A stretch of DNA of 64,000 bases from Escherichia coli. Its GTDB lineage: Bacteria > Pseudomonadota > Gammaproteobacteria > Enterobacterales > Enterobacteriaceae. Under the pieces are notes generated by a model. That model made no database searches. It saw nothing but the letters and a program-made list of their open reading frames with translations, and was not told the DNA's origin. The stretch is taken from assembly GCF_013122565.1 (NCBI RefSeq), contig NZ_CP053258.1. One strand, written 5' to 3'. Positions 25,367 to 59,622 of this stretch are shown here, piece after piece (within the stretch, counting starts at the first letter, position 1; each line of letters starts with the position of its first letter). The translations under genes were made by a program, and so were the position numbers.

Positions 25367-25831
25367 GGCAAAGAAAAACACAAGCGGAATGTTTATAAAA
25401 TGATGTTGGAATGTAAACAAAGAGAGGTAATGCCAGGGGATATAAACGATTATTCCAGGGTAGAAAGATGGGATTGTTTGCAAAGAACCATGTGTTCTTG
25501 CCGGATGCCGCGTAAACGCCATATCCAGCCGACAAAACTGTCCAGACTCAATGCATCAGAGCTTCCATGTAAAACTGATAAGCGGGTGTATCAAGCAATT
25601 TCGTCCATCCGCGATTATCAAATCTAACTTTTTGCCCGGAACATAATAACAGCTCGGGTGTTGGTGGCGTCAAAATCGCTGAAGCGTTCCCCGAAGGCCG
25701 GGACAGCAGGGGGCGGCGGCGATTGGCCGCCCCCTGCGCGCTCCCTGCACCATTCAATTTATATGGCGAGGCACATTAAGGGAGCGCAACCCGCTGCTGA
25801 AGCCAAACAAAACCGCCGCAGGCTAAGTCCC

Positions 25832-54563: not shown

Positions 54564-54735
54564 GGTCAGTGCGTATTTGCAGCGCGACGTTATCAAAGGT
54601 GATCATCGTCGATTTACAAAAAATACACTTAGCGCCCAAAGGGTTTCGCTCCGTCACATCGAATGCCGATGTACGGTACTGTGAACCATGACAATATGGA
54701 CAGCGGAAATGGAGATGTTGAGTAATAACGGCAAC
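54538..54735 (-). CDS. Possible small zinc-ribbon protein (YmcF-like) immediately downstream of cspG
   Basis: ORF 54538..54798 carries CPYC-x20-CIFC. Its ATG lies inside cspG, so a GTG start just after the cspG stop (giving about 65 aa) is more plausible. Confidence 0.3.
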   Translation of the reverse strand, partial: VAVITQHLHFRCPYCHGSQYRTSAFDVTERNPLGAKCIFCKSTMITFDNVALQIRTDHAPLDFTK

Positions 54736-54736
54736 C

Positions 54737-54949
54737 TTAGAGCGTAACAACGTTCGCTGCCGCGGGGCCACGTTGCCCCTGCTCAATAGAAAATTCAACT
54801 TTCTGATTTTCGTTCAGCGTGCGGAATTCATTGCTCTGGATGGCGGTGAAATGGACGAAAACGTCTTTGCTGCCATCATCAGGAGTGATAAAGCCAAAAC
54901 CTTTATCTGCGTTAAACCATTTTACTAAACCAGTCATTTTATTAGACAT
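54737..54949 (-). CDS. cspG: CspG, cold-shock protein
   Basis: 70 aa, [34 protein letters not shown]... Confidence 0.95.
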
Positions 54950-55234
54950 ATTTTACTTCCTTCATTTTGGGCCTTTCGGCAAACAGGGCTTTAATACAGA
55001 AACTACTTAGTGTTCAGGAGAGAGACTCAAAAGAAGGGGATAATGCCTGATAATGAGAACTGCTTTAGTAAACTACTTTGTATGCTGTCTGTCTTTCAAA
55101 CCGACGCAGCTATTAACGCATGATAATTGAGATTAAGCAAATTTTATTTTAGCCGTCCGGCGGTCTTAAATATCGCTGGCTTTATTTTATTAACCCCGTA
55201 TAGTGCAGCGCAGTATTTTCAGTAAGGAATTTGT

Positions 55235-55447
55235 TTGTCCCGTAAAATGACAGGAATTGTCAAAACCTTTGATCGCAAAAGCGGCAAAGGATTCATTATC
55301 CCCTCCGACGGTCGTAAAGAAGTCCAGGTCCATATTTCCGCATTCACTCCCCGCGACGCAGAAGTGCTTATACCAGGATTACGCGTGGAATTTTGTCGCG
55401 TAAATGGCCTGCGAGGACCAACAGCGGCAAATGTTTATTTGTCTTGA
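55235..55447 (+). CDS. cspH: CspH, cold-shock-like protein
   Basis: 70 aa, [33 protein letters not shown]... Confidence 0.9.
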
Positions 55448-56745
55448 TGGAGAGCGCACGCCGGTATGCGTGCTTCATTCACGATTTGCGTAAAACCGGC
55501 CAACGAACACATGCCCTGCGCATTTCGCTCTTCACATCCTGCCAGGGTCAGTTTCACCTCTCCGGGCGGCGTATTTAATGACAGCGGCGTTTTATCACGC
55601 ATCTGCTGTAAAGTCTGGAAGACCAGCGAAACCTGAATCCACTGGCTGTTATCGCTTAGCCGACGCCAGCGTTCAAACACCAGTTCTCCACCTGGCGGCG
55701 TGTTATCCGGCTGACCTGGAAGCGTCCAGTTGAGCTCCAGTGCGCCGCCGAGATTTGCCAGATTAGTATCGTGTCCGGCGATAAACAGCACTGCTGTGGG
55801 TAATGTCACACCATACGCCTGTTTTTGCGGTGGATGGGGCGTCAACGCTGCCATGATCAAATCCAACAACGGGGTGGCGCGGCTGCGGGCAACCTCTGGC
55901 GTGCGTTGTAGTAAATAAAATTGCGCGTTATGCAAACTTAGCAAGGTGTTCCACTGGTGTGAATCAGTGATCCTTCCCCACCCCGGCTCCGGCATTCCTT
56001 GTGCCTGTTGCAGGAGAAATATCTCCGTCAGCATTGATGCTAGGCTTACCGCACCGGTTAATGAGACATTGTCGGCGCTCACCTTGAGTTCCGATGGTAA
56101 TGCCTGCGTTAATGAACAGCTTTCGTCCTGTTTCTCACGGTTAAGGCACAATTTTGATTGCGGAAAATTAAGCACCCGTTCCAGTTCGCGAAACGCCGTT
56201 TGCCGATGCCCGGTAAAGTCAGCAATTGATCCTCCTGCCCTGCTGAGGATCGCGTCAGTCACGTTCGCGTTATCCAGTTGGCAAACGCCAGTTTTTAGAG
56301 GATTAAATAACGGATCGGGACTGGACGTATCTGCCTGGGTATGTACGGTTATTGCACAGTCAGGTGCCAGCCCGGCGGCGAAGGCTTCGCCTGTTTTACG
56401 GGTACGCTCGTCGACATCAGCAATAATCGCGACCTGACCAAGCTGCGGGCAGCCCTTTTTCGTCAGCAATCCGTCGGCTACCAGACGCTGGCGTTGGTAA
56501 TGTCCGAGATAGGCGATCAGCTCACCACCGCGCGGTGTCAGCCAACCCAGTTTTACCGGCCAGGTTGGCCATGCGTCTGGGGTGACATCCTGCATCAGTT
56601 GCGTGGCCTTGGTTGGTGCACGCACACCATGACGACTGACAATCACCACACTTTCCAGCTTCAGCTCCGGCTCACTCTGAGCGAATGCAGATTGCGGGGT
56701 TAACGGAATCAGAAGAGATAAAAATGGGATCAAGATCGCTTTCAT
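55435..56745 (-). CDS. appA: AppA, periplasmic acid phosphatase/phytase
   Basis: From [29 protein letters not shown] motif. The C-terminus appears to differ from the K-12 protein as I recall it, and the 3' end overlaps cspH by 13 bp. Confidence 0.9.
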
Positions 56746-56824
56746 CGATATGTTTCCGCTTTTCATATCCGACATTATTGATTGCCTGATACGACGCTAA
56801 TGCGCCGCATCAGACTTACGTTCG

Positions 56825-56917
56825 TTAACTTTTCAATCGCGGGTCCAGCCATACCAACACAAGGGTGGAGAGCGAACACATCAACAAAATGCCGACGAAC
56901 CAAAGTAAATACCACAT
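56825..56917 (-). CDS. appX: AppX (YccB), small subunit of cytochrome bd-II
   Basis: Reverse-strand translation MWYLLWFVGILLMCSLSTLVLVWLDPRLKS (30 aa); not in the ORF track because of its size. Confidence 0.8.
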   Translation of the reverse strand: MWYLLWFVGILLMCSLSTLVLVWLDPRLKS

Positions 56918-56929
56918 TGTTCCTGCTCC

Positions 56930-58066
56930 TTAGTACAGCTCGTTTTCGTTACGGCGGAGAGTTTCTGTTGTCATGCGCCCCCACATTTTGTAGTAGCTCC
57001 AGAGAGTGTAGAGCAACACAATGGGCAAAAATATCAGCACGATTACCAACATAATGCTCAGCGTCAGCTGGCTGGAAGTGCTGTCCCACAACGTCAGGCT
57101 GGAGATTGGACTCACGCTTGACGGCATGACAAAGGGGAACAGCGTGATGCCTGCCGTGAAAATCACGCCAAATTGCATCAATGACGCCATCAAAAATCCC
57201 CAACCCGGGCGACCACGATAAATCGCCATCACCGTCAGTAATGGGCAGAAGAACCCCAGCAGCGGGAAGATCCACAAAACGGGCGACTCGACAAAATTAT
57301 TCATCCAGGCACCAGGTAGCACTGCCACCAGTTTCATTAACGGATTGGAAGGACCGTTAGCATCCTGGGCGAGCAGTACAAAGCCATCAATACCGACCCA
57401 CAGCCAGTAACCCGCCAGCAAAAAGCAGAGCATCACCAGCAGTGCGGCGCGTTTGGTCGCCAGCTGTGAACGCAGATGAATCGCACCAACAGTTTTTAGT
57501 TGTAACCAGACGCCACCTTGCAAAATCACCATCCCAAGGCTGAGCAATCCGCACAATAAAGGGAATGGCGTCAGCAGTTGCCAGAAGCTGCCGAGATACT
57601 CCACGCGTAATTGCGGTGTGAAGGCAAACGGCACGCCGAGCAGCAAGTTGCCGAAGGCGATACCGAAGACTACCGGTGGCACCAGACTGCCGATGACCAG
57701 ACCGGCATCCCACATTTTACGCCAGCGTGCATCGGCGATTTTTCCGCGATAATCAAAGGCCAGCGGGCGGAAGAACAGCGAGCACAGCACCAGGATCATC
57801 GCCACATAAAAGCCGGAAAACGCCGCTGCATACACTCTGGGCCAGGCGGCAAATAATGCCCCACCAGCGAGGATCAACCAGACCTGGTTGCCTTCCCAGT
57901 GCGCACCAACGCTATTAATCACTATCCGGCGTTCATCATCATTACGCGCCACCAGCGGCAGCAAACAGCCGATCCCCATGTCAAATCCGTCGGAGATCAT
58001 AAAGACCACCAGGATCACGCCAATCAGCAGCCACCAGATGAAGCGCAATGTTTCATAATCAAACAT
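56930..58066 (-). CDS. appB: AppB (CbdB), cytochrome bd-II oxidase subunit II
   Basis: 378 aa, [24 protein letters not shown]... Confidence 0.95.
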
Positions 58067-58077
58067 GATTTTCTCCT

Positions 58078-59622
58078 TTACCCCTGTTGCTGCGTCGGTT
58101 GTTCACTCTGCATCGCGCTCGGCCCCAGACGGGCATATTTCTGCATCAGGTAGACTTCGGCGATTAAGAACAGGGTGTAAAGCCCTACGATCATGATCAG
58201 TGAGAAAGCCAGTTGTCCTGTGGTTAAAGCGGAGTGCGCGGAGTATGTCGGTAAGATGTCCTGTATCGCCCACGGCTGACGACCAAACTCGGTCATAAAC
58301 CACCCGGCTTCAATCGCAATCCACGGCAACGGCAAACTCCAGAGCGCCATTTTCAGCACCCAGCGATGCTGGTCGATTTTGCCACGCAGCGTCTGGACAA
58401 GCGCAATCAGCATCACCAGTAGCAGCAGAGAACCACAGCCCACCATGATGCGGAAACTCCAGAATACCGGCGCAACCTGAGGTATCGCGCCACGCATCGC
58501 CGCCTGGTACTGTGCAGCTGTGACATGGTTCATATCCGGCGCATAGCGGGAGAGCAACATGCCGTAACCAAGGTCGCCTTCCAGCTCCCGAAATGCCTGC
58601 AACACATGTGGCTCACGATTGCCTTGCGATATTTCCTGCATTAACAGCCAGGCCATACGTCCGCGTTGCAAGCGTGGGTAGGTTTCAGCCATCAAATTCT
58701 TCAGACCCGGCACGGGTTTATCTAATGAGTGAGTGGCGAGGATCCCTAGCAGCGCGGGAATTTTGATGGCAAAGGCGTTACGCTCTTGATCCTGTTCCGG
58801 CCAGGCAACCACATGGAACGGTGCAGGTGCAGGTTCCGTTTGCCACTCCCCTTCCATCGCCGCCAGTTTTACCGGTTGTACTTGCGCGACTTCATACGCA
58901 GAACTGTCTCCGAGTTGCAGGGTACCGATAATCGCCAGAGTACCGAAGACGGAACCGATGGCAAACGAGCGTAATGCGACATCGCGCTCCCGTCCGCGCA
59001 GTAAATACCAGGCGCTGATCGCCATAATAAACATTGCCCCGGTCACGTAGCCCGCCATTACGGTGTGCACAAATTTCACCTGGCTGACCGGGTTAAAGAC
59101 CAACTCGCTGAAACTGGTCATCTCCATACGCAGGGTGTCGATATCAAAATGCGCACCGGTCGGGTATTGCATCCAACCGTTGGCATTCAATATCCACAAT
59201 GCAGAGAGATTTGAACCGAACGCCACCAGCCACGTCACCAGCAGGTGCTGGTATTTATTCAGCCGCTGCCAGCCGAAGAAGAAAAGCCCGACAAAGGTGG
59301 ATTCGAGGAAGAAGGCCATTAATGCTTCCATCGCCAGCGGTGCGCCAAAAATATCGCCCACATAGTTGGAATAGAATGACCAGTTAGTACCAAACTGAAA
59401 CTCCATCGTCAGGCCGGTAGCCACGCCAAGAGCAAAGTTGATACCGAAGAGCTTACCCCAGAAGCGCGTCATATCGCGGTAGATTGTTTTGCCGGTGACC
59501 ACGTAAATGGTTTCCATGATAGCCAGCAAAAAAATCAGCCCCAGGGTAAGGGGTACAAATAAAAAGTGATACAGCGCGGTCAGAGCAAACTGCCAGCGCG
59601 ATAAATCAATGACATCCCACAT
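58078..59622 (-). CDS. appC: AppC (CbdA), cytochrome bd-II oxidase subunit I
   Basis: 514 aa from [24 protein letters not shown]. Confidence 0.95.

Follow-up and report, generated by a model that had tools for sequence, protein, structure and literature searches.

A gfc-free junction between appA and cspH in Escherichia coli: a common, old variant of the group 4 capsule locus

The 64,000-nucleotide stretch of an Escherichia coli chromosome analyzed here (the window) carries appA and cspH as abutting convergent genes, with nothing of the gfcABCDE-etp-etk group 4 capsule (G4C) block between them. We conclude that this arrangement is a common and very old alternative form of the locus, also found in sister Escherichia species, and that it is largely ordinary rather than a fresh deletion. 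On balance, we favor a reading in which the locus has long existed as two alleles and the window carries the one without gfc (the E allele), which arose by a small ancient loss of 12-13 nt where the cassette had probably never been present. That gfc is often missing was already known. The part that may be new is only the genus-wide, apparently long-lived coexistence of two junction haplotypes; no published account of the junction structure or of gfc across the genus was found in the literature searched.

The appA-cspH junction and its surroundings

The gene for the cold shock-like protein CspH occupies 55235..55447 on the + strand and encodes 70 residues from a TTG start to a TGA stop, ending ...AANVYLS*. 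The product matched the NCBIfam equivalog NF012008 at 176 bits (cut-off, 141), and the gene is annotated as cspH in close genomes in RefSeq. Its divergent neighbor, cspG (54683..55105, - strand; ORF 54737..54949), has a cspA-type thermoregulator 5' leader (Rfam RF01766, 158 bits). The periplasmic acid phosphatase/phytase gene appA lies on the - strand at 55435..56745 and encodes 436 residues; the start at 56745 is the one used by RefSeq in close relatives, and the open frame extends upstream to an ATG at 56775 (ORF 55435..56775, -). It is the last gene of the appCBXA operon, with appX (cbdX), appB, and appC upstream at 56825..59622 (-), as mapped from the annotation of strain PapM-32-1, with which the window is collinear; the listed appB ORF is 56930..58066 (-). 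AppA matched the equivalog NF007552 at 839 bits (cut-off, 585) over residues 1-432, and AppA structures in the PDB, 1DKL and 7Z1J among them, aligned to residues 23-432 with E of ~1e-275. With a full-length match above the cut-off and its C-terminal cysteine retained, the protein belongs to the AppA-family phytases/histidine acid phosphatases. The solved structures all end ...ACSL, and the window protein keeps ...IPAC; this cysteine is presumably the one that forms a disulfide in the solved structures.

The original prediction held that the gfc-etp-etk locus is missing here and that the two convergent genes overlap by 13 bp at their 3' ends. Both statements were borne out. The open reading frames leave no gfc gene between appA and cspH, the only gfc-like DNA in the entire window was one spurious 34-nt match, and the window is collinear with two annotated gfc-free genomes (L001 and L012). 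The antiparallel overlap spans 55435..55447 (TTATTTGTCTTGA) in a phase that aligns the third codon positions of one frame with those of the other. The same overlap occurs in PapM-32-1, in APEC E19019, and in the non-coli sequences L003-L006 and L022, and RefSeq itself annotates it in the first two. The K-12 interval had been put at ~9-10 kb; it measures 9047 bp from stop to stop and contains etk, etp, gfcE-A, and IS1D, and that of strain O45:H2, which is without the IS1, measures 8275 bp. Comparison also upheld the statement that the AppA C-terminus departs from that of K-12, which ends ...IPACSL. The placement of a deletion junction in the last appA codons survived in part: a small deletion there fits, but it is most likely not the deletion of gfc.

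The sole stretch consistently different between gfc-free and gfc-bearing chromosomes is a 20-nt core at 55439..55458, which on the + strand reads TTGTCTTGATGGAGAGCGCA, the reverse complement of TGC GCT CTC CAT CAA GAC AA. Its portion at 55447..55458 (-; TGC GCT CTC CAT, now Cys-Ala-Leu-His of AppA) is, by the spacer comparison given below, a probable relic of the ancestral appA-cspH spacer. A short hairpin (GCACGC-N6-GCGTGC) in the appA 3' coding region spans 55456..55473.

The best match to window positions 40000-64000 among complete E. coli genomes was PapM-32-1 (98.6% over 24 kb), a baboon isolate from The Gambia of the novel type ST8532. The cspH-side flank was 99.2% identical to K-12 and 98.3% identical to an APEC B2 strain. 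The window is from a rare E. coli lineage with local flanks that are K-12-like, not B2-like, and its assignment to phylogroup B2 was not supported. Its 20-nt core is identical to that of an APEC O2:K1:H4 B2 strain. Elsewhere in the window, ~400 bp between efeU and putP (25424-25831) could not be aligned to PapM-32-1, whose efeU-putP interval is ~2.5 kb and contains a 1329-nt hypothetical gene.

Gfc-free and gfc-bearing alleles in Escherichia

When 601 bp across the junction were used as a query, 1675 of 5426 complete E. coli genomes (31%) gave a single unbroken match; the gfc-etp-etk block was present in 3742 of the same genomes. Because the two counts sum to 5417 of 5426, the two states are close to mutually exclusive and complementary. 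Clark and Maresso (2021, Infect Immun; PMC8281228) reported the G4C in only 15 of 195 B2 strains, so that ~92% of this phylogroup is without the operon, with E2348/69 an exception; we confirmed gfc at the appA-cspH site of E2348/69. This strain (L010, L009) looks recombinant around gfc, with appA of a non-B2 type and the appB/appC and cspH flanks of the B2 type. The tor regulators are damaged in both B2 strains: torS is frameshifted in E2348/69 and APEC E19019 (L012), torR of the latter has an internal stop, and a prophage lies between torS and torT of the former; the torS frame of the window is intact. Outside E. coli, the E allele was carried by at least five Escherichia lineages: L003, L004, E. 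whittamii (L005), Escherichia sp. E1V33 (L006), and L022. The flanks of L003-L006 are 86-95% identical to K-12, and their AppA tails read C-(S/T)-L-(H/Y)-QDK.

Alleles were compared over the stretch between the conserved CCGGCx of appA and ATAAACATTTGCC (antisense of cspH), in the K-12 orientation. Every E allele has exactly 20 nt between these anchors: TGCGCTCTCCATCAAGACAA in the window, PapM-32-1, and the APEC B2 strain, TGCTCTCTCCATCAGGACAA in L006, TGCACTCTCTATCAGGACAA in L003, TGTAGCTTACATCAGGACAA in L005, TGTAGTTTACATCAGGATAA in L004, and TGCAGTTTATATCAGGATAA in L022. The window has all the features of this class, that is, the 20-nt core, the 13-bp overlap, and an AppA tail of the form C-x-L-(H/Y)-Q-(D/E)-(K/R). 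All gfc-bearing (G) alleles examined read TGCAGTTTGTAA-TGCAY, then about 8.2 kb ending ...CATA or CTGT, then TTAAGAGAG; the cassette sits in the ancestral spacer just after TGCAY and leaves both appA and cspH intact. The two boundaries are common to the G alleles of E. coli phylogroups A, B1, and B2, of the cryptic-clade assembly L020, and of E. albertii.

The E alleles themselves fall into two types. Type 1 (window, L003, and L006) carries xCT CTC, and type 2 (L004, L005, and L022) carries AGY TTA, within TGY AGY TTA YAT, in which the Ser-Leu codons are kept. The two types are of equal length and differ at 3-4 of these 6 nt, more than simple divergence predicts. Type 2 would fit the loss of 13 nt in one step, the loss of the entire cassette, or conversion of a type-1 allele by a co-resident G allele. 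The two substitutions noted among the E alleles are synonymous in both the appA and the cspH frame, and the differences between E and G at the cspH end are all synonymous in cspH. In E. coli, the states at sites 55439, 55441, and 55446 and the codons of the appA tail go with the allele whichever flank background surrounds them: E2348/69 has a B2-type cspH flank yet G-type sites, and the window has a K-12-type flank yet E-type sites. Neither GCTCTCCAT nor the E-type states at 55439/55441/55446 occurred in any G allele examined. Some E. coli AppA proteins (P0121) end ...ACALHQER, not ...HQDK, implying that the leucine codon at the cspH end is CTT instead of TTG, closer to the state of the outgroup OG77 described below.

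The G allele is not a recent arrival. E. albertii has gfcABCDE-etp-etk between appA and cspH with the boundaries seen in E. coli, and its gfc genes are 81-93% identical to those of E. coli, as compared with 88% for the flanking appB; L020 is also gfc-positive, with gfc at 84-94% and appB at 91%. Because gfc identity is similar to that of appB, the cassette has co-diverged with the species, and a recent transfer between E. coli and E. albertii or L020 was ruled out by the same figures (81-94%, close to flank identity). On these comparisons, the gfc-bearing allele is as old as the genus crown. E. albertii AppA is uniformly 432 residues long (G type; 14 listed full-length proteins), and a cryptic-clade cluster has the 436-residue E-type form. 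One non-coli species holds both alleles, G in L020 and E in L022. Upstream, 28 SNPs are scattered evenly over 11.3 kb (99.75% identity); downstream, 4 allele-specific sites lie within the last 9 nt of cspH and are followed by 524 bp of 100% identity. Acquisition of the L022 E allele from a more distant species was ruled out, with no flank SNPs found beyond the 8-nt core. The pattern is that expected of two old allele classes whose flanks have been homogenized by within-species recombination; either long-term maintenance or repeated exchange among species may lie behind it.

The cassette does not have the character of a mobile island. The secondary IS1 of K-12 is the only mobility element annotated in the appA-cspH interval of the G alleles, and the cassette G+C content (0.43-0.54) is like that of the flanks. 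A target-site duplication was sought and was unconvincing, with only 3-nt CAT/ATA repeats at the ends. The chromosomal position of the full seven-gene gfcABCDE-etp-etk set varies among genera. It lies in Citrobacter freundii (L013, 8247-15912) between dcuSR-like genes and dsbD/cutA, and in Enterobacter hormaechei (L014, 8211-15902) between ligB and yicC/rph, with no mobility genes visible around either. GfcD identity for these two is 80-81%, and coding DNA identity only ~72%. A donor with cspH-gfc-appA synteny was not found, these closest non-Escherichia cassettes being at unrelated loci. A 317-bp Nocardioides antri contig (L007) that is 98% identical to E. coli appA is almost certainly assembly contamination.

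Origin of the gfc-free allele

Two deeper outgroups, OG77 (SRR26188688; L016/L017) and OG79 (SRR33454298; L021), encode AppA proteins 77% and 79% identical to that of the window and are equidistant from all Escherichia sampled (75-81% DNA identity). Their gene order is appCBX-appA, a stop codon, a spacer, and convergent cspH, with no gfc and no overlap. The appA gene ends ...TGC (A/G)G(T/C) TTG TAA, that is, C(S/G)L-stop, before a spacer of 8-12 nt. The OG77 junction reads ...TGC GGC TTG TAA, then the spacer CGCTCTCTTCAT, then the cspH stop; that of OG79 reads ...TGC AGT TTG TAA, then TGCACTCT, then the cspH stop. AppA homologues of other genera also end two residues after the cysteine (...ACGL in Kosakonia and ...ACAL in P0149). 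Since the outgroups and the other genera share this end, the K-12 C-terminus with its TAA is ancestral and the window tail is derived. The G alleles retain TAA-TGCAY exactly as in OG79. At the cspH end, the E haplotype TCC TGA is that of OG77, and the G haplotype is TCT TAA.

The last appA codons of the window resemble the outgroup spacer more closely than they do the ancestral coding end. TGC GCT CTC CAT is identical at 9 of 12 positions to the OG77 spacer (CGC TCT CTT CAT) and at 7 of 8 to the OG79 spacer, as against only 6 of 12 for ancestral TGC-AGT-TTG-TAA. For the type-1 E 12-mers together, the corresponding figures are 8-10 of 12 (the 10 being reached in a sister species), 7-8 of 8, and only 6-8 of 12. 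This match to the spacer argues for a loss of 12-13 nt that took the stop codon with it, gfc having probably never been inserted there; the never-occupied step draws on ~9-12 nt of similarity to a spacer seen in only two outgroup contigs. OG79 suggests a route. Its appA end and spacer form an imperfect tandem 12-mer, TGCAGTTTGTAA|TGCACTCTTTAA, with 9 of 12 positions identical and TGCA repeated, and this repeat may reflect an ancient duplication of the end of appA; the second TAA of the tandem overlaps the cspH stop as TTAA (L021, 1490-1530). Microhomology at the junction would be the TGCA repeat in an outgroup-like ancestor.

The events may be reconstructed as follows. The ancestor would have had appA ending ...Cys-Ser/Gly-Leu-TAA, a spacer of 8-12 nt (TGCACTCT or CGCTCTCTTCAT), and the cspH stop on the other strand, with neither gfc nor overlap. 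The G allele, now carried by K-12, most E. coli, and E. albertii, would have arisen when the 8.2-kb gfcABCDE-etp-etk segment was inserted into the spacer after TAA-TGCAY, bringing along a promoter region of its own as well as the etk terminator. The E allele would have lost ~12-13 nt, and the appA stop codon with it; the lost piece was most likely one unit of the imperfect tandem 12-mer (TGCAGTTTGTAA|TGCACTCT...), removed through the TGCA microhomology. AppA would then read through the former spacer (Cys-x-Leu-His/Tyr) and three antisense cspH codons (Gln-Asp-Lys) to a new stop, a TAA inside cspH, which would account for the 4-residue tail and the 13-bp overlap. Both alleles would have persisted across Escherichia species, with flanks homogenized by within-species recombination up to the ~20-nt core. 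Loss of one 12-mer unit would be the most economical origin of the window allele.

The literal form of the original prediction, a recent strain- or lineage-specific deletion of gfc with its breakpoint in the last appA codons, draws on the 9 kb present in K-12 and on an AppA C-terminus that departs from K-12 exactly at the junction. Distribution and junction sequence together refute it, leaving it next to no chance. B2 strains with ~2% different flanks have exactly these 20 nt at the junction, which recurs in 1675 genomes overall, and junctions of the same length occur in species 8-14% diverged; rather than being confined to a lineage nested within gfc-bearing relatives, the form is found in 31% of E. 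coli and five non-coli lineages. Alignment of the junction to K-12 and to gfc-bearing strains further showed that no pair of breakpoints within a G allele would yield it unless extra sequence were added. The reverse polarity, in which the overlap is the plain ancestral state and insertion of gfc cut off the HQDK tail of AppA and supplied a new stop, was suggested by the first four non-coli species representatives, all of which have the overlap and the tail. We consider it very improbable, and it was dropped: OG77 and OG79 have the K-12-type end (C-S/G-L-TAA) and a spacer without gfc, other genera end AppA at Cys+2, the G alleles keep the OG79 form of TAA-TGCAY, and E. albertii has a co-diverged gfc at the same site.

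A more serious competitor is an ancient deletion of gfc. The cassette would have become fixed in the Escherichia ancestor, and one old deletion of ~8.2 kb, which began at the final base of the appA stop, reached the stop of cspH, and took the cassette and the residual spacer, would have made an E allele that then persisted or moved between species. We regard this as possible but unlikely. It accommodates the G allele of E. albertii, the earliest-branching species sampled (14 of 14 listed full-length AppA proteins of 432 residues), the Ser-Leu codons that type-2 E alleles share with G alleles, and the 3-nt ATA repeat that flanks the segment in L020, for which the predicted product ...AGT TTA TAT... 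equals L022 up to that point. An undeleted empty site, moreover, was not seen among the Escherichia genomes sampled, which include few non-coli genomes. The lack of such a site also counts against the small 12-13 nt loss, as do the shortness of the spacer similarity, the equally good fit of type-2 alleles to a 13-nt or a whole-cassette deletion, the need for 3 substitutions in 6 nt or gene conversion to unite types 1 and 2, and the saving of one polymorphism carried through speciation if E arose from G after the E. albertii split. What weighs against the large deletion is the sequence at both edges. The type-1 motif xCTCTCYAT matches the outgroup spacer and is missing from both ends of every G allele examined; the deletion endpoint would need to coincide exactly with the right boundary of the cassette; and the last 9 nt of cspH in the predicted product show 3-4 mismatches to each actual E allele, also in the case in which the adjoining 524 bp match throughout. 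That end of cspH, TCC TGA, is the one found in OG77 and not the TCT TAA of the G alleles.

A broader proposal may also be considered. The presence or absence of gfc, as the inserted cassette or the 12-nt slippage allele, could be an ancient trans-species polymorphism older than the separation of E. coli from E. albertii and the cryptic clades, maintained by balancing selection, with linked divergence erased by recombination except over ~20 nt. Both alleles are present in E. coli and in the species of L020 and L022, gfc co-diverges with its hosts, and the E cores differ by species; the allele-specific sequence amounts to only ~20 nt, and the non-coli genomes were few. We therefore advance this proposal tentatively. 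Balancing selection could come, for instance, from phages or hosts acting on the O-antigen capsule, or from its exclusivity with capsules of group 2.

Gene ends, the AppA tail, and relation to known systems

The claim that neither gene has room for a terminator of its own stands, as no consensus intrinsic terminator fits or was detected at the junction. A consensus scan found no terminator-like site on the + strand from 55180 to 56376 or on the - strand from 54900 to 57000, and folds around the junction were no more stable than shuffled sequence (z-scores of -0.5 to -1.2). No intrinsic (Rho-independent) terminator was thus identified at the gene ends. A structured RNA at the junction was also rejected, Rfam finding only the cspG leader. 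The hairpin at 55456..55473 is followed on the appA strand by the T-rich AGTTTGTAAT in gfc-bearing alleles and by GCTCTCCATC in the window. This 6-bp appA 3'-end hairpin has a T-rich tail in the G and outgroup alleles, and the terminator scan called it in O45:H2, not in the window. The G cassette additionally places the etk terminator (an 11-bp stem and a T-run) 8 nt from the appA stop. In the E allele, the appA and cspH transcripts presumably end inside each other's gene, by Rho, with some mutual antisense. AppA function is probably unaffected by the tail, because the added residues lie beyond the last structured residue and the disulfide cysteine is kept.

For the window itself these results mean little, since the strain has the capsule-free form of a well-known variable locus. 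They bear on several other matters. The K-12 form of the AppA phytase (...ACSL), the laboratory and industrial one, has the ancestral C-terminus, and about one-third of E. coli make a protein four residues longer. Because the empty site probably did not arise as a deletion scar, "loss of G4C" in ExPEC may be a misnomer. The two forms apparently coexist across Escherichia species and would be a compact test case for the long-term maintenance of capsule presence and absence. Finally, the terminator-less convergent overlap is a natural system for mutual antisense between the stationary-phase gene appA and cspH.

Among known systems, small deletions by slipped-strand or microhomology events, in which a stop codon is lost and an ORF grows into its convergent neighbor, offer a close parallel to the proposed origin, the E allele looking one tandem 12-mer unit shorter than the OG79 outgroup; here such an event is deduced from the sequence only, and an extra 1-nt difference in spacer length must be assumed. 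Like the G4C-negative E. coli, which include most B2/ExPEC strains (PMC8281228), the window is without the gfc/ymcDCBA-yccZ-etp-etk genes. It differs from G4C-negative B2 strains in that its flanks are not B2-like, and that study scores whether the genes are present without describing how the junction is built or its history across the genus. The window has the same flanking genes, in the same orientation, as the appA-etk-etp-gfcEDCBA-cspH arrangement of K-12, EPEC, and EHEC (PMC8592465, PMC3366997, and PMC4368438), whose insertion boundaries are identical in K-12, O45:H2, E2348/69, the cryptic-clade strain, and E. albertii. Compared with that arrangement, the window is without the 8.2-kb cassette, the original appA stop, the TGCAY start of the spacer, and the etk terminator, and instead has the 4-residue AppA tail and the 13-bp overlap.
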